Positions 4,551 to 51,338 of a stretch of 64,000 nt of DNA are shown here, one piece after another. Within the stretch, counting starts at the first letter, position 1, and each line of letters starts with the position of its first letter. This DNA comes from a virus (taxonomy: Duplodnaviria; Heunggongvirae; Uroviricota; Caudoviricetes): the IMG/VR virus record IMGVR_UViG_2681813318_000003. One strand, 5' to 3'. Under the pieces are notes generated by a model, which had not been told where the DNA came from, made no database searches, and saw only the letters and a list, made by a program, of their open reading frames with translations. The position numbers and the translations under genes are program-made.

Positions 4551-6456
4551 AGCTGCGCCCCTCTTTAACTTCCAGCGTAATAGTTTCGCGGAACCATGAC
4601 TTCATCTCTTTATGGGAGATAATCAGCACAGTGCCCCGTTCGCGAGCTTTGGACTCCAGAATACCCATGAGGCGTTCAAGACCGGCTGTATCGAGTGCAT
4701 CGTCAATTTCGTCGCCGATAAACAAATCGATGTTTTTACTCGCCCGGTTACTAACCAGATCCTGCAATGCCAAAGAACACGCAATGCGAACCTTCCGCTT
4801 CTCACCACCAGAGAGGGTCTGGAACGACTTACTTGAACCTTTCTTCTGCACACTAATGTTGAATTTGTCGCGATACTCACCTTTTTTAGTGACATCCATC
4901 GTCGACCACTCAGCAGTAATATTCCCGTCAGACAACGTATTGAGATACTCGGCTGTGCGTGTATTCAGGAAAGGCGTAACAGACGTCAAAATATGAGAAC
5001 GCACCCCGGCAGGAGAGTAGACCTGACGAGCTTTTTCCAATAGCAACGTTTGTTCCTGAATAGCCTTCAACTCATCTTTTAAGGACTTGAAGGTAGACTT
5101 ACTGGATACCAGGTTATCTTCGTGTCTGGCGATAAGAGCAATAAACGGATTAATCTCTTTTGATATACGATCGACCTCAGTACGAGCACGAGTAACAAGA
5201 GACTCAATAGCAACAACCTCCTTCTCACGATGACGCAAAGATGAGAGTTGTTTAGTAAGTTCTTCAATCCGGGCAATGATAGCCGTTACATCAGGTGTCG
5301 TTTTAACAAGGGCAGACTCAATGCTTAACGCCTTCTCAAGATTCGTTTTGTGTTTAGCCATTGCCTCTGCAAGTGTCTTCGCCTGACCAATTTCCTGACG
5401 TGCTTGTTCAATGAAATTCTCCTTCACCGTTGATAGATCTTTTTCGCAGTAGGCTTTGCCACAAGTAGGGCATGGTGATCCTACTTTAGTACCAACCTCT
5501 TCTGCTTTGGTCTTAAAATTGCGCGCGCGGCTCATTGCATCAGCCTGACTATTTTCTGTAGCTTTGATGCTTGCCCGAATATCAGTTATCGCTCCACGCA
5601 CTTTGAGCAACTTGGCGTCATGTTCTTCTTTTGAGGCTAACTTTTTGCGCTCACTTTCGATTGCCTTCTCGGTATCACAGATCTGTTCGGGAAGAGTGCG
5701 GATCTCAAGTTCAACTTCTGTTAACTCAACTTCGGCACTTGCCAGCCCAGCCAGGGCATCGTCATAACGTTTAGAACGCTCTTGTTCCCATGATTCAGAG
5801 GAGGCTTTCGCGGACTCAATTTCTGACTGTGTTGCCTCAATGGTCGAGATTGTCGACTCCAATTTGGTTTTAACCACGTCCATACGTGCGGCAGCTGCGT
5901 TAGCTCGTTCACGAGCAATAGCGTAGGCGCGTGTCAGTCTGTCAACGCCAGCGGCTTCTTCTACGATGGTTTTGAGGTTTTTGTCGGACATTCCAGGTAG
6001 ATCTGGCATAGCTTCTTGGCTTGCATAGATGGAAGCCATGAAAACCTCTTTAGATGCACCGATCAGACGTTCGACGAACTCTTGCGTCAGCGCATCTTTG
6101 CCTTTCGTCATATCGCCGTCTTCACCACGAACGATAAGCCGATTTTTGAACTCTTTGTGTTTACGGTGACGAATGATCGCATATCTCTTGCCTTCATCCT
6201 CGATGGTTACTGCAACACGACAGTTCTTTTCATGGTCGGTAGACAACACATCGTCCCCCTTCACACCATGAGCTGTTTCACCATAAAGACACCACATCAG
6301 GCTATTCATTAGAGTTGACTTTCCAGAGCCATTACTTGATGCGGAACTATCATCACTATTAACGCCCTGAATTAACACTAAACCACGCTGATCTAACTCG
6401 ACCTCCGCGCTGGCGATAGCCATAAAATTCTCAACCTGGAGTTTTAAAAACTTCAT
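4540..6456 (-). CDS. sbcC: SbcC/Rad50-like DNA repair ATPase
   Basis: 638 aa; Walker A GSGKST near N-terminus, long coiled-coil with central CPTCGK zinc-hook-like CxxC, C-terminal signature and Walker B (DEIDDALD). Confidence 0.85.
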   Translation of the reverse strand: MKFLKLQVENFMAIASAEVELDQRGLVLIQGVNSDDSSASSNGSGKSTLMNSLMWCLYGETAHGVKGDDVLSTDHEKNCRVAVTIEDEGKRYAIIRHRKHKEFKNRLIVRGEDGDMTKGKDALTQEFVERLIGASKEVFMASIYASQEAMPDLPGMSDKNLKTIVEEAAGVDRLTRAYAIARERANAAAARMDVVKTKLESTISTIEATQSEIESAKASSESWEQERSKRYDDALAGLASAEVELTEVELEIRTLPEQICDTEKAIESERKKLASKEEHDAKLLKVRGAITDIRASIKATENSQADAMSRARNFKTKAEEVGTKVGSPCPTCGKAYCEKDLSTVKENFIEQARQEIGQAKTLAEAMAKHKTNLEKALSIESALVKTTPDVTAIIARIEELTKQLSSLRHREKEVVAIESLVTRARTEVDRISKEINPFIALIARHEDNLVSSKSTFKSLKDELKAIQEQTLLLEKARQVYSPAGVRSHILTSVTPFLNTRTAEYLNTLSDGNITAEWSTMDVTKKGEYRDKFNISVQKKGSSKSFQTLSGGEKRKVRIACSLALQDLVSNRASKNIDLFIGDEIDDALDTAGLERLMGILESKARERGTVLIISHKEMKSWFRETITLEVKEGRSYVV

Positions 6457-6685
6457 ATAACACCTTTGATACCGTGTGTTAGCTTTTGACCTTCTTTCAA
6501 TCTGAACTCCGTATGCGCCGGGAAGGATCTGCGCCTCAATACGCCTTTTCTGGTTAACCTTCCAAGATAAAACGCTACGGGATTTCCTTGTGGCGGGTAG
6601 GGCTTGTGAAACATCACCGTCTGGCCTCGTTCAAGTCTTTTCATCGTGATGGCAAAGTCTCGAAAGCTCCCATAACGACTTTGCC

Positions 6686-7771
6686 TCACACAGCCTCCGA
6701 ACTCTCCGCTTCGGTGAGGATTTCCTGACACAAAATATCCAACTTGCTCAGATCAAATCCGCCGTCAGTATCGTGGACAATCTTGCAATAAGCAGATACC
6801 GACTCTCCCAGGCTATCGATTTTGCTGGTTTCCGTTGTGCTTGCTGTCCCTTCCATCATTGATGACTTACGGATGAAGTTGCACACAACACCTTTTGCAC
6901 CCATTGTTTTGAGGATGTTCTGGTACTTAATGCCTTCTTCGTCGTTCTCGATTACGGCGCGGAAACGCACGTAGTTGCCGCGAATTTGGTCATCAGCAAC
7001 ATAATCTTCCAGGTTAATGAATTTAGGCGCACTGGTTTCGTAGTGACTGAAACTGCCGTCCGGGTTTACGATCATGTAACCAGCCAGAGATCCAACATCT
7101 CCCCAATTTTGATGGGTCAGTGCACCGACACTGATAACTCCAGGAATGACCTCTTTGTGGTTGTGGTAATGCCCACTAAGCACGAGACGAAAGCCGATAT
7201 CCTTTAACTCCTGCGCATCGATACCGACGTCAGGCATTGTTGGAATGGCTTTGTTAATGGATGTATGGATAACAACATCATGATTATCACCTTCTACGCT
7301 CTTACGTAATGCTTTCAGATCGCTGATAAGCTCTGCATGATTGTTACGCCAGCTAATCAGGTGGACAGTCACATCACCAATTTTTATTGAGTGTGGGCGC
7401 TTGCCACATACGATTACCACGCCGATAGAACTCAGCGATGCTGCTGCGTTGGCGCTATATACTGAATCGTTGGTTTCAAGATCGTGATTACCGGCCAGCA
7501 TTACTACTGTCAGATCAAGCTCGTTGATAATCCACTTGTACGTTTCAGTTACGTAATGCAAAACAGAAGGGGACACAGTTCCTCGGACGTGAAATGTATC
7601 ACCGGCAACCAACATGTACTTACAACCGGCCTTCTTCATGGCGATGGCTGCTTCTTTCGTTGCTTCCAACTGTATTTCAAGTCTGGAGTTAAGCCCCTCA
7701 GCGTTCGTCGTGGAGAACGCATCCCATTTGTGGTAGTGGCAGTCAGAAATGACGCCGTATGGCAAAGTCAT
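6686..7771 (-). CDS. sbcD: SbcD/Mre11-like nuclease (calcineurin-like phosphoesterase)
   Basis: Phosphoesterase motifs (DCHYH, GDTFH, GNHD). Start placed at the internal ATG (7769-7771) preceded by the conserved AAAGGAAAAACAC RBS motif, rather than the track start at 7801. Confidence 0.85.
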   Translation of the reverse strand: MTLPYGVISDCHYHKWDAFSTTNAEGLNSRLEIQLEATKEAAIAMKKAGCKYMLVAGDTFHVRGTVSPSVLHYVTETYKWIINELDLTVVMLAGNHDLETNDSVYSANAAASLSSIGVVIVCGKRPHSIKIGDVTVHLISWRNNHAELISDLKALRKSVEGDNHDVVIHTSINKAIPTMPDVGIDAQELKDIGFRLVLSGHYHNHKEVIPGVISVGALTHQNWGDVGSLAGYMIVNPDGSFSHYETSAPKFINLEDYVADDQIRGNYVRFRAVIENDEEGIKYQNILKTMGAKGVVCNFIRKSSMMEGTASTTETSKIDSLGESVSAYCKIVHDTDGGFDLSKLDILCQEILTEAESSEAV

Positions 7772-8092
7772 GTGTTTTTCCTTTGTGGTTATTTGATACA
7801 AATCTTAAGCTTGCTCGAGAGGTGAGCAACCAAGACAGCACGGCACAGAAGAACATCAACAGGCATAGTATTACAAAATAAATAGGTAAGTGAATACCTA
7901 CCAAAATTGTTGAATGGATTGCTTACAAGGCGGCTAGAGTTTCATTGAAGTGCTTAGATGTATATGGTAGGCAAAAGTCTCATCGTTACATATGAATGAA
8001 CTATCTCATGGGTCATGTATCATTTGATATTTTTATTATCAACAATTACTGTATAAGAGGAATTTTCCAAATTGAAAAAGGATTGATTATCA

Positions 8093-8350
8093 ATGGCTAT
8101 TGATGAAAGAAATATTGTTGTTGGTGGATTGTACAAGACCCATACGAATCAAGAACGGGTCGTTCTAGAAATAAAAGATGATGAAGTGAAATACGCTCCT
8201 CGAGGTGGAAATGTAGAAAATAAATTTGACCATATGCAAAAAGCCAAATTGATCACATTTGCAGGAGCATGTTCAGAAAAAATTAAAGATTTACCCTCCG
8301 ATGAATTTAATAAAATTCGACAACTATTTGTGGATAGAAAACTTATTTAA
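8093..8350 (+). CDS. hypothetical small protein
   Basis: 85 aa; AAGGA RBS about 8 nt upstream; followed by hairpin and T-run terminator at 8442-8471; plus-strand island. Confidence 0.55.
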   Translation: MAIDERNIVVGGLYKTHTNQERVVLEIKDDEVKYAPRGGNVENKFDHMQKAKLITFAGACSEKIKDLPSDEFNKIRQLFVDRKLI

Positions 8351-8441
8351 ATAGTTGTATTAGTTTTGAGGGTTTGTCTCTTAAAGGATTACCATTACTT
8401 GGATGAGTAAATTTTAAACAGGAAAAGTTCTAAAAGCCAAT

Positions 8442-8471
8442 GAGCGCCTATGTAACGAGCGCTCTTTTTTT
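8442..8471 (+). terminator. rho-independent terminator (GAGCGC/GCGCTC stem plus T7 run)
   Basis: Stem 8442-8447 / 8459-8464 followed by TTTTTTT at 8465-8471, between convergent genes. Confidence 0.55.
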
Positions 8472-8497
8472 GTTTGTGGATGGGCCTACTAAACCAT

Positions 8498-9151
8498 TTA
8501 AATCGTGTCGGAGGGCTTTTTACGCGCGTTACGCGCTGCGTTTATGCTTATGACGCCAGCTTTTGGACGTGGGTCAACAAGGTTAAGCTCTTCTTCACTG
8601 TGGTATTCGAGGTCGAACTCACGTTTTACATGTCTGATGTAGATTGCGGTGAGCAGGCTATCTTTGGTTAGGAAGTGTCCGTAGGATTTGCGGATCACTT
8701 CTTCTACCTTCTCGATTTTCTCACCCCCCATACAGAGATGATTAAACCGGCTGTGTTTTCGCAACATTTCGTCTACTGGACCTGAGTAAACCTTGTCTAC
8801 TTTCCCAAAACGGATGATTTTCCCTGTGTCTGCGGATACAAGGCAAATCAGCTTGTCTGGTGATAAACGATCTCGCCACGTCACACCTGAACGGAGTGTG
8901 TTGAAGTAGGGGGCATCCAATCCGATGATCGGTTTACGAAATGCGAGCAATGGAACGTACCTGATGCAACTGTTTAAATGAAAATTCACACCAGCCTTAT
9001 CAAGTTTAATTCTGGTTTCGTAGATCGGGCACTTCGCCGCTATACCGCAGATGTCACAAAGCAACTTCTGCTTATTCAGGTTGGAATTTGATTCGATAGT
9101 GTAGGAGCCGTCTTCAAGACGACGAACCCAGCGCGTGCGTTTTAGATCCAT
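8498..9151 (-). CDS. hypothetical protein (Cys-containing)
   Basis: 217 aa ORF ending just before the origin region; CDICG...C cluster; no confident family assignment. Confidence 0.55.
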   Translation of the reverse strand: MDLKRTRWVRRLEDGSYTIESNSNLNKQKLLCDICGIAAKCPIYETRIKLDKAGVNFHLNSCIRYVPLLAFRKPIIGLDAPYFNTLRSGVTWRDRLSPDKLICLVSADTGKIIRFGKVDKVYSGPVDEMLRKHSRFNHLCMGGEKIEKVEEVIRKSYGHFLTKDSLLTAIYIRHVKREFDLEYHSEEELNLVDPRPKAGVISINAARNARKKPSDTI

Positions 9152-27254: not shown

Positions 27255-27445
27255 TAAGGTATGGAATTTAAATTCTGTAATATTAGAGGGGCATTACTTC
27301 GGAAATCGTGAACCTTTACATGTGAGGATTATTGTTCTATTTTTGCTGGGACACGTCGTAGCGCCGCCGGGATTATTAGGCTCGATATTGAGATTTTGAG
27401 CAGAGAGTAGGTTAAGAAGAGGCAATGACCGCTATTGCTTTCAGA

Positions 27446-27862
27446 TCAGGAGGCGTGAAAGTTTTCTGCAACGTTTGAAAAATATTTTAGTAGCCTAGTA
27501 TCTCTTGCAGACATGCGAACATGAGCTGGAGTGACTAACCCCATCAGCAAATAACGACCGTTCTCCCACATATGCTCGGTATAGATCAGATAGTGATCTG
27601 AAGTTCGGTTGTAGTTTTCTTGCCTTACACTCCAGGTTAACTGGAAATGTAAATTTACGTGAATATGTTGGACGTTAGCGTCAACGGCAAACGGAGGAAA
27701 ATCGAATGGCGCATCTCTACCAAGAAGATTGGACGGGTTGCCAGTTGATTTGTAGGTAATGAACTCAGTTTTGAGCTGATTTTCTAGATCAGGATAAACG
27801 GCAAAAGTAGGTTGAAAAAACTCTACCCATGTCTCTTGACTGTATTCAGCCGTTAATGCCAT
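27446..27862 (-). CDS. YafO-like type II toxin (ribosome-dependent mRNA interferase family)
   Basis: 138 aa; motif series FITYKSTGNP..GRDAPFD, VQHIHV, NYNRTSDHYLIY, LLMGLVTPAH, ARDTRL, AENF matches E. coli YafO as recalled from memory (needs HMM confirmation). Confidence 0.5.
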   Translation of the reverse strand: MALTAEYSQETWVEFFQPTFAVYPDLENQLKTEFITYKSTGNPSNLLGRDAPFDFPPFAVDANVQHIHVNLHFQLTWSVRQENYNRTSDHYLIYTEHMWENGRYLLMGLVTPAHVRMSARDTRLLKYFSNVAENFHAS

Positions 27863-28401
27863 TTGACTGCAGCCTTGTTGCCTGTCGCCAATAGATGATT
27901 CATGGCAACGAGGTTTACGCCAGAGTCACGTACTACAGAGGTGCGTGTAATCTGGTCGATCAGATTTAGATAATTTTTGGCCGCAATACTGACCATTTTA
28001 ATAGCTTTAAAGAAGGCAAACTCTACAGCGTTTTTGTCGTAAGACAAAATGACATCTTTTTCAGGTAACATCAAAACGAAAGATTCTGCGATTGCGGCTA
28101 CATGAATCGTTTGATTTTTAATTTCTTCCGCTACATTGACAGCAGCAAAAAAATCAGTGTCAGCATAACGAGCAAGTTCAGCGCGGCTTGAGCGCAGTTC
28201 TGTCGCTAGCTCATTAAGAGCTGCTGTAAGATCGCTGATGTCGGTTTTGTTGACTCTAGCGCCCATCTCATAAACCCGCTCTACAATAGTGGGCTGGCAC
28301 GCAACCGCTTTTGGTTGCGGCTGGATGCTGGCAAGAACCAGTGCCACTGCTGCCTGTAAATGCTGGATTTTAAATTTCACGATAGACTCCATAATCGTCA
28401 T
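27853..28401 (-). CDS. hypothetical protein, candidate cognate antitoxin
   Basis: 182 aa ORF overlapping the toxin start by 10 nt (operon); does not resemble YafN/Phd-type antitoxins; start codon uncertain. Confidence 0.45.
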   Translation of the reverse strand: MTIMESIVKFKIQHLQAAVALVLASIQPQPKAVACQPTIVERVYEMGARVNKTDISDLTAALNELATELRSSRAELARYADTDFFAAVNVAEEIKNQTIHVAAIAESFVLMLPEKDVILSYDKNAVEFAFFKAIKMVSIAAKNYLNLIDQITRTSVVRDSGVNLVAMNHLLATGNKAAVKWH

Positions 28402-28528
28402 TTCTCGACGAGGCGTAGTATTCTACTACTGAATTTAACTATAAGCTAAAAAAACTTGGTTGCATAGACGACTGAGACTGCAAAACACGAAATGAAAAAT
28501 TAAAGGCCGCTTTCACGGCCCTTTAAAG

Positions 28529-28774
28529 TCAAAGTGTGCTGACATATGCGGCCAGCTCTGTGTATCCGCCAATAGGTTGGCCATCGATCAGCACTTGGGG
28601 GATAGTCTCTACCGGTTTACCAACAATTTCGCTAAGTTTTTCCTTGTCGATACCGGCAGTTGTGATGTCGATGTACTCATAATCACCGTAGCCATGTCCC
28701 TTTAGTTGCTTCGCCAGCTCGACCGCACGTTTGCAGTATGAGCAGTTATCTCGTCCGTAGATAACGACTTTCAT
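28529..28774 (-). CDS. glutaredoxin (RNR electron donor type)
   Basis: CSYC active site near N-terminus and PQVLIDGQPIGGY C-terminal motif; start set at ATG 28774 (track uses upstream GTG). Confidence 0.85.
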   Translation of the reverse strand: MKVVIYGRDNCSYCKRAVELAKQLKGHGYGDYEYIDITTAGIDKEKLSEIVGKPVETIPQVLIDGQPIGGYTELAAYVSTL

Positions 28775-28890
28775 CACTTCACCTCGTGCAACTGCTGTTC
28801 ATTAACGATGATTGTGTCAATTTCGTAGCCGTGGATGCGTTTCACTGCCTGACGAGCTGCGCGACGCGCCTGTTTACGTTTGTTTCCCAT
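28771..28890 (-). CDS. small basic protein (39 aa)
   Basis: Manual translation MGNKRKQARRAARQAVKRIHGYEIDTIIVNEQQLHEVK; AAAGGA RBS; stop overlaps the glutaredoxin start (TGATG); below track cutoff. Confidence 0.3.
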
Positions 28891-28991
28891 ATTGAGTCCT
28901 TTCAAGTGAGTAAGTGTCGTGACTATAGCTAAAATGAATAAGTGAGTCATTACCTATTTAATGTGTTGGGTTACTAAGCAGAAATGGCTTT

Positions 28992-30329
28992 GTGAGGTTG
29001 ACGCACCAGAACCGGCAAGACAGCTTTAAACTAGCTGAAATGGTATGGTCGATTAGGTATCATTCAGTTTCAAAATTAACCAAAGACACTGATAAAATGC
29101 CTGTTTTGTTAATCCTCATACTTGGGACAGTGATGATTATTTTCTGGGATACCGTCAAGGAAAACGTAGAGGTCATAGGTACACTTGCCACTTCACTTGC
29201 ATTTTTCGCCACAGCATGGGCCGCTTACGAGGCAAGGCATAGTGCAAAGGCAGCAATGAGGGCTACTAGGCTGACGGCAGCTTCACTCCTTGAAATGAAA
29301 AAAGCCTCTTTTAAGGAATGGTACGGCATATTACTTGAACAGCATAATAGATTACTTGAGGATGTTAACAAGACCTTGCAGGATGATAGGGAACTTAATG
29401 CAAAACTGGGAATGAATCTCATCAAGGCTATTTATTACCATGTAACCAAAAACTCCGTTTACATTAAATATATTAACCACATAGTTTTAATTCTTGATTA
29501 TTTAGATAAAGACTTCTATTCGCCGTCATCAGCCGATTATGAAAAGAGAGCTTACATAGAACAGCTGCGCAACAGCATTAGTCCTAATGTAAGCCTGCTG
29601 ATAGCTACATTCGGCCTTAATATTGACACTAATAAAACCTATGACGCAAAGAGACTTTACAGTCTGCTAAGCAAGTATAACTTCTTCGAAGGCCAACTTT
29701 TTTTTGAAGAAGCAATATCGAAAGTTCATTATTTGGACTCTTATGCTGCTGTGATATTTGATAACGAATACCGAAAAGATGTAGAGTTTTATGTTGAAGA
29801 AATGGTTCGAGGTCGTGAGACCCCTAAAATCGATACAAGATACCGTCATTTAAGGGCTACGTTCGCAATTCTGTGGTCTTACAACAACCCCTGCCGACAA
29901 CATTTGCTTCAAAGATTTAATGACCTACCTATGCATATGCGAAACAGCATTGAGCTGAGGATGGAAAATGCAGCCGATAAAGTAGCTGAGTTCAACTCTT
30001 TGTTACCTGGTTTTATAGGCTGGGAGCTTAGAATCGCAGGTAATAAAGTGAGGGTGATCAAGGATGAAAAACATTTAAAGAGGCTAATAAAACTCAACGA
30101 TAAGTATCCTATTTCCCCCCGAGAGAGAAGTATTCTGTTAACCAATGGTATCACCAATAGATTCGCTGATGAGATTAAAAATAGTCTGTCTATGTATAAG
30201 TTAGAAAATGCCTATTTAGCACTCAACTCTAATCAACACAAAGAAAAGGTGATTGATGAAATTGTTGTTGAAGTTGAGAAAATTGTCGATAAATTTAAAG
30301 CAGAACTTGATTCTTTAGATTTCAACTAA
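28992..30329 (+). CDS. hypothetical two-transmembrane-helix protein in an AT-rich plus-strand island
   Basis: 445 aa ORF; two N-terminal hydrophobic helices then about 350 aa soluble domain; markedly AT-rich relative to flanks; true start may be internal (for example ATG 29097 MPVLLILILG). Confidence 0.6.
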   Translation: MRLTHQNRQDSFKLAEMVWSIRYHSVSKLTKDTDKMPVLLILILGTVMIIFWDTVKENVEVIGTLATSLAFFATAWAAYEARHSAKAAMRATRLTAASLLEMKKASFKEWYGILLEQHNRLLEDVNKTLQDDRELNAKLGMNLIKAIYYHVTKNSVYIKYINHIVLILDYLDKDFYSPSSADYEKRAYIEQLRNSISPNVSLLIATFGLNIDTNKTYDAKRLYSLLSKYNFFEGQLFFEEAISKVHYLDSYAAVIFDNEYRKDVEFYVEEMVRGRETPKIDTRYRHLRATFAILWSYNNPCRQHLLQRFNDLPMHMRNSIELRMENAADKVAEFNSLLPGFIGWELRIAGNKVRVIKDEKHLKRLIKLNDKYPISPRERSILLTNGITNRFADEIKNSLSMYKLENAYLALNSNQHKEKVIDEIVVEVEKIVDKFKAELDSLDFN

Positions 30330-30331
30330 GC

Positions 30332-30356
30332 AAAAAGGGGCCGAAGCCCCTTTAAT
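30332..30356 (+). terminator. rho-independent terminator (GGGGC CGAA GCCCC plus T-rich tail)
   Basis: Stem 30337-30341 / 30346-30350 followed by TTTAATTATTT; A-run upstream makes it potentially bidirectional. Confidence 0.7.
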
Positions 30357-30508: not shown

Positions 30509-30595
30509 TGGCGGAGAGTAATGGAATCGAACCATCATCGCTTGCGCAATGGGACGGTTTTCAAGACCGCTTGAGCACCATGCTCCCTACTCTCC
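30509..30595 (-). tRNA. tRNA-Ser (anticodon UGA), type II with long variable arm
   Basis: Manual cloverleaf: acceptor GGAGAGT/ACTCTCC, anticodon stem-loop GCGGT-CUUGAAA-ACCGT (as in E. coli serT), T-arm GATGG-TTCGATT-CCATT, encoded CCA. Confidence 0.7.
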
Positions 30596-30915
30596 GGCCG
30601 TTGTGGTGGCCGGTACTGAACTCCGACACAGGGTTGTAGCAAACCCCGCAAAGCGCGCACTACTGTAGTTGCGGCACATCAGCCTGTGCATTCATCACAA
30701 CGGTAAGATCACTACCTTTCGACCAGTCATTGTGCACATGAACGACGATTAACCGTAATGATATTATCGTTGTGTTGTGAAGCCAGATGCTTATCTTCTG
30801 GTTGCTTCAAAGAGCTGCACTTCCTCACAACGGTAAGAGCACTGGTCTGACTCTATCGATTTACGGCCTTGTGGGTCAGTATCGCCGATTCGCCCAATGC
30901 TCTTACCTGTTGTGT

Positions 30916-30991
30916 TGGTGCCGGTTAACGGACTTGAACCGCTGGCCATTCGCTTACAAAGCGACTGCTCTACCAACTGAGCTAAACCGGC
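30916..30991 (-). tRNA. tRNA-Thr (anticodon UGU)
   Basis: 76 nt: GCCGGTT acceptor, D-arm GCTC-AGTTGGTA-GAGC, anticodon loop TTTGTAA, T-arm AGCGG-TTCAAGT-CCGTT, encoded CCA. Confidence 0.8.
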
Positions 30992-30995
30992 AATT

Positions 30996-31082
30996 TGGTG
31001 GGGAGTGATGGAGTCGAACCACCCGAGTCGCCATGACAGTAGATTTACAGTCTACACCGCTACCTCTACGGACTAACTCCCC
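30996..31082 (-). tRNA. tRNA-Tyr (anticodon GUA), type II
   Basis: 87 nt: acceptor GGGGAGT/ACTCCCC, anticodon stem-loop GTAGA-CTGTAAA-TCTAC, long variable arm, T-arm GGTGG-TTCGACT-CCATC, encoded CCA. Confidence 0.8.
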
Positions 31083-31087
31083 TAAAT

Positions 31088-31162
31088 TGGCGATGGTGGG
31101 TGGATTCGAACCACCGACCAGTTGGTTAACAGCCAACTGCTCTACCGCTGAGCTACACCATC
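31088..31162 (-). tRNA. tRNA-Asn (anticodon GUU)
   Basis: 75 nt: acceptor GATGGTG/CACCATC, D-arm GCTC-AGCGGTA-GAGC, anticodon stem-loop GTTGG-CTGTTAA-CCAAC, T-arm GGTGG-TTCGAAT-CCACC, encoded CCA. Confidence 0.85.
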
Positions 31163-47180: not shown

Positions 47181-50100
47181 TTATTCTTTAGGTGAATTTA
47201 ACTTCGTTTCAAGCTCCTCAACCCTTTTGGTCAATTGCTGAATATGATGAATGAGTGGTACAACCAAACGCTCATACATCACCCCTTCAGCGACCATACC
47301 ATTTGAGGAAATATCTTCTGGAGAATCATTATTTGTTGGTTCACGCCAATGGACATATTGCGGGGCAATCTCACCTACCTCTTCAGCAATAAGGCCGTAA
47401 TACCCCCAATCCTTTCGGTCACCTCGACAAATTGAACGATACCAAACAGGTCTTAATGACAAAAGTTCATCAGCATATCGATCTTGTAATGTTTCAATAT
47501 CCTTTTTATAGCGCCTTGAAGATGTTGAACGCCAAACTGTATTGATACCTGGGTTTGGATCAATGTACATATTGGCACCGCTAGTAGTTGTGCCAATATC
47601 CCATATAGCAAACCCTCCACTACCGCCTGATTTGACAACCAGTGTTTCAGCAATAATATCCAGGTTGCCACTATAGCCTGTCAGTGATGATCTGCTTGCA
47701 TAGGAACTTAGAAGGTTTGTTACCTCTGTTTTCGTGTAAGCATTAAGGTTAGCCGCAGTCAAAGTAATATCGGCAGAGCCATCAAACGCCACACCAGCAA
47801 TTTTCCTTGCTGTCTGCAATTTTGTGGCTGTTGCGGCATTACCAGTAGTATTCTGATTACCGGTTGTATTCACACCAGGGATTGAATCCTTAGCAGTATA
47901 TACCTGCGCCCACGCTGACCATGCCGCATCTGTGGTATCTCTTCGTGAGCGAATGAAAACTGGCGCATGTGCACCGCTCGTACCACTCCAGCCAATAAGC
48001 AACTCGCCCTCACCAGCAGCACTCGCACCTTTCATGTGCAATACGTTGCCATACGTGGTCGGATAGCTATTGTTGTACGCCTCGTACATTTGAATGCCAG
48101 CAGTGCCTTGAGTAGAGCCGCTTAATGCCGTAACTCGGCCACGAGATACCAGTGTATTAATGTTGATATCGCCTGAGCCATCAAACTTAACACCATTGAT
48201 GTTTCTCGCTGTTTGCAACTTCGTAGCTGTTGAAGCATTACCGTTCAAACTACCATTTACGCCACCAGTCACATTTAGTCCATTACCAATTGATACCGCA
48301 CCGCTGGTATTATTAATTGTAATAGGTCGCAAACCGTTCCATGAACCTAATGTGTCTCCTGATGCTGTTAGCATGAAATATGTGTTCGATCCATCATTAC
48401 GGATAAAGAACCCAAAGCTACCGTAAGCAATGCGGAAACCATTTGCATATTTTGAAATGATCTCACCAGAAGACGTTAATCCGCCAGTTAACGCTCCTCC
48501 AGATAGTGGTAAAGCTCCGACATCAGCCGCAGTAGGCTTGTTTTTAGTGTTATACGCTCTGCGCCATCCTGGTGAATAGCTCGTCCCGTTAAATACATAG
48601 ATAAACTCCGCATTAGTGAGAGCACCAGAGACACTCGTCGTTGTGGCCGTTGTTATACGGATCGTATAATTGTTTGAGCTACTACCGTTATTAAATACCT
48701 CTATAACAGCTCCTGCTAATGGAATAACGCCACAACCAGTTTCACTATTTGGTATGGTTGCACTATTGGCATAGGCCCACGCACATCGAGCAATCCATGA
48801 CTTTGTGTTAAATGCTCCATTATTTTGCAATAACGTCACTAACTGTGCTGTTGTTATTGCTCCGCCATTACTTCCTGTAGTTAACCAACCAGTAGGAGAT
48901 GCCGGGCAACCTATATTTGCTGGCGACAAGGAAATATTTGCCGAGCCGTCAAACGACACCCCATTGATAGTACGCGCAGTCTGCAACTTCGTAGCAGTAG
49001 CCGCGTTGCCCGTTGTATTCTGATTACCAGTCGTATTAACACCTGGCAAATTAATATTCGCAGTACCATCAAAGCTCACGCCGCCGATAGTTCTTGCCGT
49101 CTGAAGTTTTGTAGCAGTTGCAGCATTACCAGTGGTGTTCTGATTACCCGTAGTATTTACACCTGGAAGGTTGATATTTGCAGAACCGTCGAAACCAACT
49201 CCACCGATAGATCTTGCCGTCTGCAATTTCGTTGCTGTACTTGCATTACCATTTAATGTTCCGGTGATCCCACCAGTAACAGACAACGGACCTGAAACTG
49301 TTCCTCCGGTTGTTGGCAGTGCTCCAATATCTAACGGCGTCGGTTTCTGATGTGTGCTATACATCGTATAAACAACACCATCGGTAACGCTGGAAGGCTT
49401 ACTAGCTGAATATGTTGGCGATGTATAAATAGAAACTGTCGCATTTGCAGTACAATCCCAATGGATATTTACACGAGTCGCATAATTGCCAATCTCAACG
49501 TAAATATCATATGTATCGCCGGATGTGTTGATCCAGGCGAAATTCGTTAATCCGACAGCTGTACGCTTCCACAAAGCACCTGTAATCCCTTTGGGGTTTC
49601 CATTGCCTGCTCGTAGAACCAGTTCTGAAATGCCTGCCTGATGTGGGGAGCCGACGTTGTAACCAGCGCCACCAATCAATGCGATGTAAACGATGGAACT
49701 CGCTTGTGGCATTGTAACAGTAGCCAGTTTGAACCACCCGGCCCCGCCAGAGAAAGACATCGTTATTGAATTTAAAGTACCAATATCTTTCGGCGTTAAT
49801 GTGATATCCGCAGTCAGTGCTTTCCCGTTAATTTTTCGGTTAGATGGCACCCTGCTGTTCGCATTGTCATTGACTACTTTAACTGCTTTTGGCGTTGCGG
49901 CCAGCGATTCACTGGTGCTGTCGACAGCACTGCTAAGTTTCACAACACCTTTAGTTGTAAGGCTTGCGTCTTCCATCGCAACTGCACCGGCAATCTCTTC
50001 AGCACGATCAGCAGCAGCTTCCGCACGGGTCGCAGCGGATTCAGCAGCAGTTTTGCTCTGAGATGCTGCCGTCGCACTGCCTGCCGCCTCTGTTGCTTTC

Positions 50101-51338
50101 GTGGATGCCGTCGTGGCGCTGCCCTTCGCTGCTGACGCCTGTCTGGTCGCCTCATCTTTTGAAGCAGACGCAGATGATGCCGATGACGCTGCCGAACTGG
50201 CGGATGATGCGGCTGCCGTTTTTGAGGATTCTGCACGGGTTTCCGACGCTTTCGCGTTCGTTTCGGATGTCTTCGCTGCGGAAGCAGACCTCGCTGCTGC
50301 GCTGGCCTGTTCAGTGGCTTCGCCAGCCTTCGTTGTGGCTGTTGAAGCAGACGATGCGGCACTTTCTGCCGATTTTCCGGCGGCGGTGGCACTGGCTGAG
50401 GCCTGCCCGGCACTTGTTGACGCGGCACTGGCAGACGACGCAGCCGCTGTTTTTGAGCCTGCCGCAGCCGAGGCGCTCTGTCCCGCTGCCGTTTCAGAAG
50501 ACCTGGCGTTCGTCTCGGACGTTTTTGCCGCCTTCGCGGAATTTCCTGCCGCCGTTGCCGAGGAAGCGGCATTACTGGCGCTCGAGGCTGCGCTCGTTTC
50601 TGATGATTTCGCTGCCTCTTTTGAGGCCGCCGCATCCCGGGCTGAGGTGGCAGCTTCTGACGCCTTCGTGGTCGCGGTGGATGCAGAAGTGGCTGCAGAT
50701 TTTTGTGACGCTGCAGCATTCGTTTCAGACGTTTTCGCGGCACCGGCACTGGTGGCCGCCGCGCTTTTTGAGGACTCTGCAGCGGATGCACTTTGAGACG
50801 CTTGAGAGGCTTTTTCTCCAGCGGTATTGGCGCTTTCTGCTGCTGCGGCAGCACTGGCCGCCGCCTCACGAGCTTTGTCGCCAGCAGCATCAATCGCGTC
50901 AGTGTTATTTTTATACCACTCAACGTTTTCGTTGTGCTCGTTGACGATCTGCATTAGCGGCTTAACGGTCACTTCTGTACCGTCTTCACGCTCGATTGTC
51001 ACCTCATCCAGAGCAGTCAACCAACTGCGCATGGACTTGGAATCAGCCGACATACGCGACATTAGTGCTGTAAAGCGCGCGCTAAACTGTGTTAAGTCGC
51101 CTTCATAGGTCGTAATGATTCGGCACGGAACTTCAGACTGAGTTTCGCCGGTATAGGGTTCTGAGAGAACAATGTTCGTATCACTGGTTACGCGCTTGAT
51201 CTCATACAGCTTATTGTCGGGGCCAATGACGATCATCCCCGGCAACACACCATTAGCTGTTACGTTCCAGGCTGTCCCTGCCCCAACCAGAGTATTGCTG
51301 CCCTGTGTAAATGTGATAGTACCTTCCCTGTACCACAT
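47181..51338 (-). CDS. long tail fibre protein with Ala/Ser-rich low-complexity region, tandem repeats and C-terminal peptidase S74 intramolecular chaperone domain
   Basis: 1385 aa; about 330 aa Ala/Ser-rich region; repeated NINLPGVNTTGNQNTTGNAATATKLQTAR units; C-terminal STSSRRYKKDI...YGLIAEEV motif typical of self-cleaving S74 chaperone domains (T5 pb1 / endosialidase type). Confidence 0.8.
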   Translation of the reverse strand: MWYREGTITFTQGSNTLVGAGTAWNVTANGVLPGMIVIGPDNKLYEIKRVTSDTNIVLSEPYTGETQSEVPCRIITTYEGDLTQFSARFTALMSRMSADSKSMRSWLTALDEVTIEREDGTEVTVKPLMQIVNEHNENVEWYKNNTDAIDAAGDKAREAAASAAAAAESANTAGEKASQASQSASAAESSKSAAATSAGAAKTSETNAAASQKSAATSASTATTKASEAATSARDAAASKEAAKSSETSAASSASNAASSATAAGNSAKAAKTSETNARSSETAAGQSASAAAGSKTAAASSASAASTSAGQASASATAAGKSAESAASSASTATTKAGEATEQASAAARSASAAKTSETNAKASETRAESSKTAAASSASSAASSASSASASKDEATRQASAAKGSATTASTKATEAAGSATAASQSKTAAESAATRAEAAADRAEEIAGAVAMEDASLTTKGVVKLSSAVDSTSESLAATPKAVKVVNDNANSRVPSNRKINGKALTADITLTPKDIGTLNSITMSFSGGAGWFKLATVTMPQASSIVYIALIGGAGYNVGSPHQAGISELVLRAGNGNPKGITGALWKRTAVGLTNFAWINTSGDTYDIYVEIGNYATRVNIHWDCTANATVSIYTSPTYSASKPSSVTDGVVYTMYSTHQKPTPLDIGALPTTGGTVSGPLSVTGGITGTLNGNASTATKLQTARSIGGVGFDGSANINLPGVNTTGNQNTTGNAATATKLQTARTIGGVSFDGTANINLPGVNTTGNQNTTGNAATATKLQTARTINGVSFDGSANISLSPANIGCPASPTGWLTTGSNGGAITTAQLVTLLQNNGAFNTKSWIARCAWAYANSATIPNSETGCGVIPLAGAVIEVFNNGSSSNNYTIRITTATTTSVSGALTNAEFIYVFNGTSYSPGWRRAYNTKNKPTAADVGALPLSGGALTGGLTSSGEIISKYANGFRIAYGSFGFFIRNDGSNTYFMLTASGDTLGSWNGLRPITINNTSGAVSIGNGLNVTGGVNGSLNGNASTATKLQTARNINGVKFDGSGDININTLVSRGRVTALSGSTQGTAGIQMYEAYNNSYPTTYGNVLHMKGASAAGEGELLIGWSGTSGAHAPVFIRSRRDTTDAAWSAWAQVYTAKDSIPGVNTTGNQNTTGNAATATKLQTARKIAGVAFDGSADITLTAANLNAYTKTEVTNLLSSYASRSSLTGYSGNLDIIAETLVVKSGGSGGFAIWDIGTTTSGANMYIDPNPGINTVWRSTSSRRYKKDIETLQDRYADELLSLRPVWYRSICRGDRKDWGYYGLIAEEVGEIAPQYVHWREPTNNDSPEDISSNGMVAEGVMYERLVVPLIHHIQQLTKRVEELETKLNSPKE

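Follow-up and report, generated by a model that had tools for sequence, protein, structure and literature searches.

A strand-flipped, AT-rich gene in an SSU5-like phage-plasmid

The DNA analysed here, a 64,000-nucleotide stretch (IMG/VR record IMGVR_UViG_2681813318_000003; the window), is part of an SSU5-like phage-plasmid, and our subject is a single gene in it, at 29097-30329 on the plus strand, whose product appears to be a distant relative of the abortive infection proteins AbiC and AbiP and which we therefore call the AbiC-like gene. Its flanks share 95-97% identity with the Escherichia phages CMS-2020a and Cyrano and with many ~110-kb non-mobilizable enterobacterial plasmids. The gene and the cassette that holds it comprise the following features, with the basis of each in brackets (L numbers denote the loci compared).

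28950..28959, no strand: left junction of the slot, where the backbone ends with TTACCTATTT (sequence comparison, BLAST breakpoints)
28960..30331, plus: exchangeable cargo cassette of 1372 bp, made up of the upstream element and the AbiC-like gene (replaced or absent in relatives)
29028..29096, plus: conserved upstream element moving with the gene (promoter scan, seven-locus alignment)
29035-29040 and 29058-29063, plus: putative sigma-70-like promoter, CTGAAA and TATCAT with a 17-nt gap (promoter scan)
29056-29063, plus: invariant block GGTATCAT, which contains the -10-like TATCAT
29074-29080, plus: invariant block AATTAAC (seven-locus alignment)
29097..30329, plus: coding sequence of the putative AbiC/AbiP-group (PF16872-related) protein, 410 aa (open reading frame, start comparison, selection, phrog_18168, hhalign)
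29100..29147, plus: predicted transmembrane helix 1 (TM1), residues 2-17, PVLLILILGTVMIIFW (Kyte-Doolittle 19-residue mean 2.1-2.25)
29172..29228, plus: predicted transmembrane helix 2 (TM2), residues 26-44, VIGTLATSLAFFATAWAAY, rich in small residues (Kyte-Doolittle ~1.4)
29454..29636, plus: equivalent of the PF16872 (putAbiC) core, an 80-position model, residues ~120-180, KYINHIVLILDYLDKDFY...YIEQLRNSISPNVSLLIATFGLN (mapped from relatives)
29727..30326, plus: C-terminal half (residues 211-410), evolving fast; largely helical, plus two small beta hairpins
30332..30353, no strand: right junction, a bidirectional intrinsic-terminator hairpin of the backbone, AAAAAGGGGCCGAAGCCCCTTT (conserved in L001 and L005-L009)

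An earlier note, made from the letters of the window, had singled out an open reading frame (ORF) here as lying on the opposite strand to its neighbours and as far more AT-rich than its surroundings, and both observations hold. The ORF is intact on the plus strand, with its stop at 30329, and the integrase, YafO pair, glutaredoxin, tRNA and ligase genes are all on the minus strand. The stretch 29097-30329 has 38.0% GC where the window averages 46.2% (standard deviation 3.1 for windows of equal length), which makes it the most GC-poor of its length in the 64 kb, ~2.7 standard deviations away; only 0.16% of all such windows are as GC-poor, and every one of them overlaps it.

The start proposed in that note, GTG at 28992, is probably wrong. 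A start of the type 'MP + hydrophobic', corresponding to ATG 29097, is found in 11 of the 11 loci compared, while stops within 3-17 codons close the frame upstream of it in L007, L009, L012 and L014, and at the P2-like locus an upstream ATG reads into a stop. The 35 residues upstream of Met36 are common only to close SSU5-type relatives and are otherwise non-conserved. Since the 'MP' start is universal in the compared loci and the upstream frame is closed by stops in some of them, the true start is most likely ATG 29097, which gives the 410-aa product. No good Shine-Dalgarno sequence precedes any of the candidate starts, and the leader before ATG 29097, which is A-rich, also lacks one. Across seven loci in SSU5-like, P2-like, lambdoid and chromosomal contexts, the ~75 nt preceding this ATG are conserved, while synonymous sites in the coding region are saturated. 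These ~75 nt are best read as a promoter and leader travelling with the gene, the promoter function being a prediction, with transcription expected to begin near 29070.

A conserved membrane module and a fast-evolving C-terminal half

The two N-terminal transmembrane helices of the original prediction are borne out. TM1 is strong and TM2 weak by hydropathy, yet the latter is the best-conserved segment of the family, with a mean identity among 30 homologues of 80% at residues 31-60; over the N-terminal 90 residues the mean identity is 53-80%, compared to 22-38% beyond residue 210. The hydrophobic N terminus is retained even in homologues of 31-39% identity, and TM2 is followed by a basic juxtamembrane helix (EARHSAKAAMRATRL...). 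Because the loop between the two helices is net acidic (1+/3-) and the C-flank of TM2 net basic (7+/3-), we infer from the positive-inside rule that the large domain is cytoplasmic.

The polar residues conserved in the family are H83, Y125 and R158 (410-aa numbering). The protein has an isoelectric point of 8.3, and its charge profile, which is uninformative on nucleic-acid binding, displays no marked basic patch in the sequence. In the AlphaFold2 (AF2) model, the predicted local distance difference test score (pLDDT) is ~85-97 in the C-terminal half, and the fold gave no informative match among structures.

The gene is under purifying selection, as judged by a ratio of nonsynonymous to synonymous substitution rates (dN/dS, omega) of 0.16-0.34 against five homologues with unsaturated dS, and of 0.13-0.16 against two more distant ones, and its reading frame is intact at all loci. 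This constraint is unevenly spread, with omega at ~0.03-0.08 in the N-terminal 90 residues versus ~0.2-0.5 in the C-terminal 200. Residues 211-410 are a candidate specificity or trigger-recognition region.

Profile comparisons place the protein in the AbiC/AbiP group

That the protein contains no recognisable motif stands for single-sequence searches, which come back empty in Pfam, PADLOC, NCBIfam and PDB sequences, and falls with profile methods, which place it in PF16872/AbiC-AbiP. PF16872, whose gathering threshold is 22 bits, did not match the window protein even at E<=1, and the PADLOC AbiC and AbiP models matched neither the window protein nor 24 close relatives. The protein does match phrog_18168, a family of unassigned function, at E 3e-175. 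A homology search yielded 72 relatives, nearly all labelled 'hypothetical'; two distant ones carry PF16872, 'putative phage abortive infection protein'. Weak PF16872 matches (E<=0.1) were seen in 8 of 25 aligned close family members, and the L009 allele, from the same slot, just reaches the threshold at 22.1 bits.

The family profile, searched against 1.84 billion representatives, recovered 137 clusters. Among the 107 full-length relatives detected in this way, 78 match PF16872 at E<=1e-3, and the only recurrent PADLOC families are AbiC (13) and AbiP (14). Relatives scanned singly, among them P0064, P0072, P0090 and the L009 allele, have their Pfam match in the equivalent of residues ~120-180, and these residues align with the PF16872 stretch of Lactococcus AbiC.

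As a reference we used the Lactococcus AbiC from plasmid p275A (retrieved via PMC6458302), which matches PF16872 and, along its whole length, the PADLOC AbiC model (E 4e-133), and aligned it with five other proteins passing the Pfam PF16872 threshold. A core-family alignment from which every PF16872-positive sequence had been left out was then compared by hhalign with these six PF16872 proteins, giving a probability of 99.7% and an E of 3e-25 over 305 columns, which cover the membrane module and the PF16872 core. A second homology search, word-indexed and using the 107-sequence alignment, did not reach Lactococcus AbiC. We conclude from the profile evidence that the protein belongs to the AbiC/AbiP superfamily as a remote but genuine member, lying below the curated Pfam and PADLOC thresholds. 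The suggestion that it could be an undescribed single-protein membrane effector is not borne out in that form: it is homologous to the described AbiC/AbiP group (PF16872) and already falls within phrog_18168, so that, on these profile matches, it is a new enterobacterial, phage-borne member of a group already described. The name putAbiC itself yielded nothing in the literature.

A terminator-bounded slot with exchangeable cargo

The window, L003, L005, L006 and L008 are alike as far as TTACCTATTT and unrelated beyond it. BLAST comparison with sister elements gives the same left boundary, similarity ending at 28959 and resuming at 30332, at AAAAAGGGGCCGAAGCCCCTTT; the cassette between these points is replaced or absent in Cyrano (L001), L005, L006, L007, L008 and L009. 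The hairpin at the right junction has a folding energy of -15 kcal/mol on the plus strand and -13.9 on the minus strand, where it presents a UUCG loop followed by UUUUU and so would also terminate the convergent tRNA cluster. A strong terminator had been ascribed to the gene itself. The stable, GC-rich hairpin at 30332-30353 is real, but it belongs to the backbone, where it is kept whatever the cargo and even in cargo-less Cyrano.

What the slot holds differs from one relative to the next. In phage Cyrano it is empty, with a different left junction at which a 116-aa minus-strand ORF adjoins the glutaredoxin gene (grx). L005 has an AbiGi-family gene (Pfam 1.6e-25, PADLOC 5.7e-43) and L006 an AbiH-family gene (Pfam 1.2e-61), while another sister has two cargo genes, the larger product of which is similar to PDC-M68A/Cap4-type nucleases (PADLOC 5.7e-25) and is a nuclease candidate. 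E. coli backbones with 93-100% identical flanks contain alleles of the AbiC-like family with identities of only 31% and 35% (hhalign 100%). Within the cassette, no RNA family was found by Rfam and no partner antitoxin ORF is present.

Syntenic relatives therefore keep the flanks and vary what lies between them, known defence genes being among the options, as expected of a hotspot. The proposal that the gene sits in an acquired accessory or defence hotspot, and the presence/absence comparison at this locus that was suggested for it, both come out positively: the same junctions hold other defence cargo, divergent alleles or nothing. Since the slot varies among near-identical phage-plasmids, sisters carry recognised Abi genes and the gene is compositionally foreign (its GC content is 31-39% at 35 of 35 loci, 6.5-25 points below the flanks), its status as an acquired hotspot gene is well supported by these sequence comparisons. 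The adjacent tRNAs, which had been taken as part of the hotspot signature, are incidental, exchange occurring at the terminator hairpin and the P2-like and lambdoid copies having no tRNA nearby. On the same grounds, we ruled out the tRNAs as an integration target.

A separate observation concerns the SSU5-like plasmid p2 of Klebsiella pneumoniae Kp1604 (L045, NZ_CP085480.1), which is reported to cut phage plating 10-100-fold (PMC8969562). Its slot (5789-6703) holds an unrelated 304-aa protein with no family match, which adds one more uncharacterised type of cargo to the hotspot, and we dropped this plasmid as evidence for the AbiC-like gene.

Distribution and mobility of the family

Members of the family are present on ~139 plasmids in PLSDB, compared with ~743 that encode a ligase >=60% identical to that of the window, or approximately one in six. 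Matches at the DNA level occur in 17 of 5,426 complete E. coli genomes, all on ~110-kb plasmids, and IMG/VR viral contigs contribute 26 loci; tblastn found no match in the GenBank phage collection. Outside SSU5-like elements, the gene is found as a strand-flipped insert between the baseplate-spike and tail-completion genes of a P2-like prophage, and, again strand-flipped, between the replication genes and RusA/Q of a lambdoid prophage of Cedecea. These placements show a gene that evidently is mobile between three types of temperate phage, SSU5-like, P2-like and lambdoid.

A Pectobacterium chromosome also carries a family member. On this contig (L010, Pectobacterium brasiliense), an AAA_15/AAA_21 ATPase gene, of a kind common in defence systems, lies ~6.5 kb upstream, at 1-1521, truncated where the locus begins; this chromosomal member may be in a defence-island context.

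A probable anti-phage protein and the alternatives

The explanation we favour, with a probability of roughly 0.62, is that the gene encodes a divergent enterobacterial, AbiC/AbiP-group, single-protein, membrane-anchored anti-phage protein, which travels as a self-contained moron and here occupies the SSU5-like cargo slot. A function in phage defence is likely on sequence grounds. The protein would be made in the lysogen and anchored by an N-in/C-in helical hairpin, with its ~365-aa helical domain in the cytoplasm, where it would remain inert until an infecting phage supplied a trigger. By analogy with AbiP, this trigger could be a late or structural phage protein, read by the variable C-terminal half. 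Once triggered, the protein would block late phage development in one of two ways, either by binding nucleic acids and disturbing the early-to-late expression switch, as reported for AbiP (with AbiC, the reduction is in capsid protein), or by damaging the membrane through the conserved, small-residue TM2 module. In either mode, the host population of the phage-plasmid would be shielded from competing phages.

Several points weigh against this explanation. Direct searches with the window protein matched no entry in Pfam, PADLOC, NCBIfam or PDB sequences, and the family profile matched the lone Lactococcus AbiC weakly (E 0.025, probability 1.9%), albeit on the PF16872 region, so that membership of the group rests on transitive profile evidence; moreover, five of the six reference sequences were themselves found with the family's own profile. 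TM2 is only weakly hydrophobic (Kyte-Doolittle ~1.4), and the AF2 model has a confidence of <50 across the membrane region. An AbiC-like protein of lactococci (38% identity to AbiC) conferred no resistance against the phages tested (PMC11381338), and because of this homology is no guarantee of activity. The mechanisms of AbiC and AbiP are unresolved and apparently different, which makes the steps set out above analogy only. Finally, we found in the literature no phenotype, expression or topology data for any member of the clade.

Some of the same features would suit superinfection exclusion (Sie), in which an inner-membrane protein keeps phage DNA from entering, or interrupts an early envelope step, while the host is neither killed nor arrested. 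The protein has an N-terminal membrane anchor, exclusion proteins of phages, among them lactococcal Sie2009 and gp15 of HK97, are small and membrane-anchored, and the protein is encoded by a single gene with its own promoter-like element that occurs, like many Sie genes, as a moron in three kinds of temperate phage. We nevertheless consider exclusion improbable, since the homologues AbiC and AbiP take effect once phage DNA has entered, their targets being the production of capsid protein and the transcription switch (PMC13064643), and since the charge distribution predicts a cytoplasmic rather than a periplasmic large domain (a sequence-based prediction, with TM2 weakly hydrophobic), an orientation also predicted, as C-in, for one-TM variants of the family. 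A membrane role outside defence, be it as a conversion or fitness factor, as a toxin-like addiction gene or in modulating lysis or induction of the element itself, is in our view unlikely as well. It is true that no PF16872 protein of Proteobacteria has a demonstrated function, that the fold has no informative structural match, and that a neighbouring slot holds a YafO toxin-antitoxin-like pair, so the area gathers addiction-type cargo too. Yet the gene is present in only about a sixth of related plasmids, it swaps with AbiGi, AbiH and nuclease cargo at identical junctions, its cassette is without a partner antitoxin ORF, and the fast C-terminal half, together with deep allelic divergence between near-identical backbones, is typical of genes in host-parasite conflict.

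AT-rich DNA is commonly silenced by H-NS in Enterobacteria, and the adjacent phoH has been deleted to a remnant, showing local decay, both of which would fit a silenced or decaying xenogeneic relic, kept but functionally irrelevant. We give this hardly any credence: every locus has an intact frame, dN/dS lies at 0.13-0.34, with the N-terminal module down to ~0.03-0.08, and the upstream element is kept across unrelated phage backbones.

If the gene does encode an AbiC/AbiP-group anti-phage protein, a more ambitious version of that explanation, which we put forward tentatively and regard as possible but doubtful, is that it is a modular sensor-effector immune protein. The near-invariant TM2 and juxtamembrane helix would be the effector and the diversifying cytoplasmic C-terminal half would recognise structural proteins of incoming phages, the whole forming a unit that, with its own promoter, would hop between three phage types and be swapped allele for allele at the terminator-bounded slot.

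Neighbouring genes and other variable regions

Around the cassette, the order of genes and features is as follows.

Left of the slot: repressor-like gene (plus), integrase (minus), YafO-toxin pair (minus), glutaredoxin (minus), short phoH remnant, then the AbiC-like gene (plus)
28805-28959: phoH remnant (5' end and upstream region), which holds the left junction of the slot
Right of the AbiC-like gene: hairpin, four tRNAs (minus), small genes (minus), DNA ligase (minus)
30509..31162, minus: tRNA cluster Ser-UGA, Thr-UGU, Tyr-GUA and Asn-GUU, directed towards the cassette (ARAGORN, Rfam)

In the window, 28774-28959 comprises a 58-aa minus-strand ORF and the sequence up to 28959, which correspond to the remnant of the phoH 5' end and upstream region. 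Klebsiella and Enterobacter relatives have an intact phoH and a Gp49-family gene at the equivalent position, which are deleted in the present element.

A second variable slot lies between the integrase and glutaredoxin genes (27257-28519). It is occupied by two overlapping minus-strand ORFs, 27446-27862 and 27853-28401, which encode a YafO-family toxin (Pfam PF13957, E 1.7e-20) and, upstream of it, a 182-aa protein without known family that may be the antitoxin. This segment is kept in Klebsiella and Enterobacter phage-plasmids and missing from the closest E. coli relatives examined (L001, L002, L007-L009 and L017); in Cyrano and L017, an unrelated 184-aa plus-strand gene is found at the position of the YafO pair.

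The tRNA cluster is variable too (30626-30894 and 31023-31086), the Ser-Thr spacer and the tRNA-Tyr gene being gone in several relatives. Cyrano has only Ser, Thr and Asn, and some loci of the Klebsiella type contain no more than Ser and Asn, or just Asn. In the sister phage-plasmid L007 (NZ_CP104844.1, locus 6119-7672), an ISEcp1-blaCTX-M unit has inserted downstream, close to the same tRNA region, so that this neighbourhood also gathers resistance cargo; blaTEM transposons near tRNA loci of SSU5 elements have been described in a preprint (10.1101/2025.09.12.675607).

Two compositional outliers lie elsewhere in the window. An AT-rich islet at 8001-8500 (32% GC) contains an 85-aa plus-strand ORF (8093-8350) between minus-strand genes, which has no match in PADLOC and may be another small moron. 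At 50001-51000, where GC rises to 58-62% with a strong AT skew, the sequence is internal to a minus-strand ORF of 1385 aa (47181-51338) and codes for long Ala/Ser/Thr-rich low-complexity repeats in the N-terminal part of a large, tail-fibre-like protein.

Comparison with known systems

AbiC and AbiP have been grouped together as AbiC/P (PMC13064643). AbiC lowers production of the major capsid protein while leaving DNA replication unaffected, whereas AbiP, a membrane-anchored protein that binds RNA better than single-stranded DNA and requires its TM segment, prevents the switch from early to late transcription and is toxic when the phage major tail protein is present (PMC13064643). Like the gene described here, AbiC (Prf) of Lactococcus lactis pTN20 is a single-gene system. 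The proteins share their layout, one or two N-terminal TM helices (two in AbiC, as here) followed by an all-helical domain without solved relatives (PMC13064643), and the likeness to AbiC extends to a common PF16872 core region (profile-profile E 3e-25 to the verified members, a Lactococcus AbiC among them), to location on mobile DNA and to low GC content. There are differences as well. At 410 aa versus ~340 aa, the window protein has an additional, fast-evolving C-terminal region, it has diverged from lactococcal AbiC too far for a direct search to find the identity, and the Arg and His of the consensus 'SPYMRxLYH' are not retained (KYINHIVLIL). In addition, the carriers are temperate phages and phage-plasmids of Enterobacteriaceae rather than the dairy plasmids on which AbiC is found.

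Closer to home, the Enterobacterales PF16872 proteins annotated as 'putative phage abortive infection protein' (such as P0072 of Citrobacter braakii and P0212 of Salmonella) belong to the same superfamily and length class and possess the same N-terminal membrane module (ATAWAAYEAR...SAKAA), at 20-32% identity. In contrast to the window clade (PHROG 18168), they reach the Pfam threshold, and of the two it is the window clade that occupies the SSU5-like slot and occurs in P2-like and lambdoid prophages. The resemblance to the Abi_C domain (PF14355), the HEPN C terminus of AbiJ/SadR, is in name only; PF14355, a HEPN RNase domain carrying the motif RxxxxH, is unrelated (PMC13590631). No Pfam match to PF14355 was obtained with the window protein, and H83, Y125 and R158 form no Rx4-6H motif. 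A HEPN reading, invited by this name clash and by the 'RxLYH' of the putAbiC consensus, was rejected because of the wrong motif spacing and because the residues are not kept in the clade.

With respect to genomic setting, the slot resembles the hotspots of temperate phages and satellites, such as P2/P4 and the accessory regions of P1 and SSU5 (PMC13586616, bioRxiv 10.1101/2025.09.12.675607), in its fixed position, interchangeable cargo and sharp junctions, and in a cargo that is AT-rich and often strand-flipped. We found no description in the literature of this particular slot, between the phoH/grx side and the tRNA-cluster terminator, or of its AbiC-like cargo. In a survey of SSU5 elements made with DefenseFinder, AbiH and PrrC are among the systems listed and AbiC is absent, and since Pfam thresholds and PADLOC also miss the clade, defence inventories of SSU5 elements may under-count it. 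The terminator-bounded slot itself is a clean case of defence cargo being exchanged like cassettes.

Described in 1992, AbiC still has neither a resolved mechanism nor an informative fold, and the same is true of AbiP. The gene reported here represents an AbiC-superfamily clade in tractable Enterobacteria, and its carriers are phage-plasmids often met in clinical E. coli, Klebsiella, Salmonella and Enterobacter, whose near-identical backbones hold alleles of 99%, ~78%, 35% and 31% identity, other Abi genes, or nothing, and so provide a ready-made comparison. If the sensor-effector model were true, the alleles that occur naturally in E. coli would bring to light the mode of action of the AbiC/AbiP group, a question standing since 1992. 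The AbiC-like gene would thus be, not a new kind of system, but a tractable entry point to the mechanism of AbiC and AbiP.

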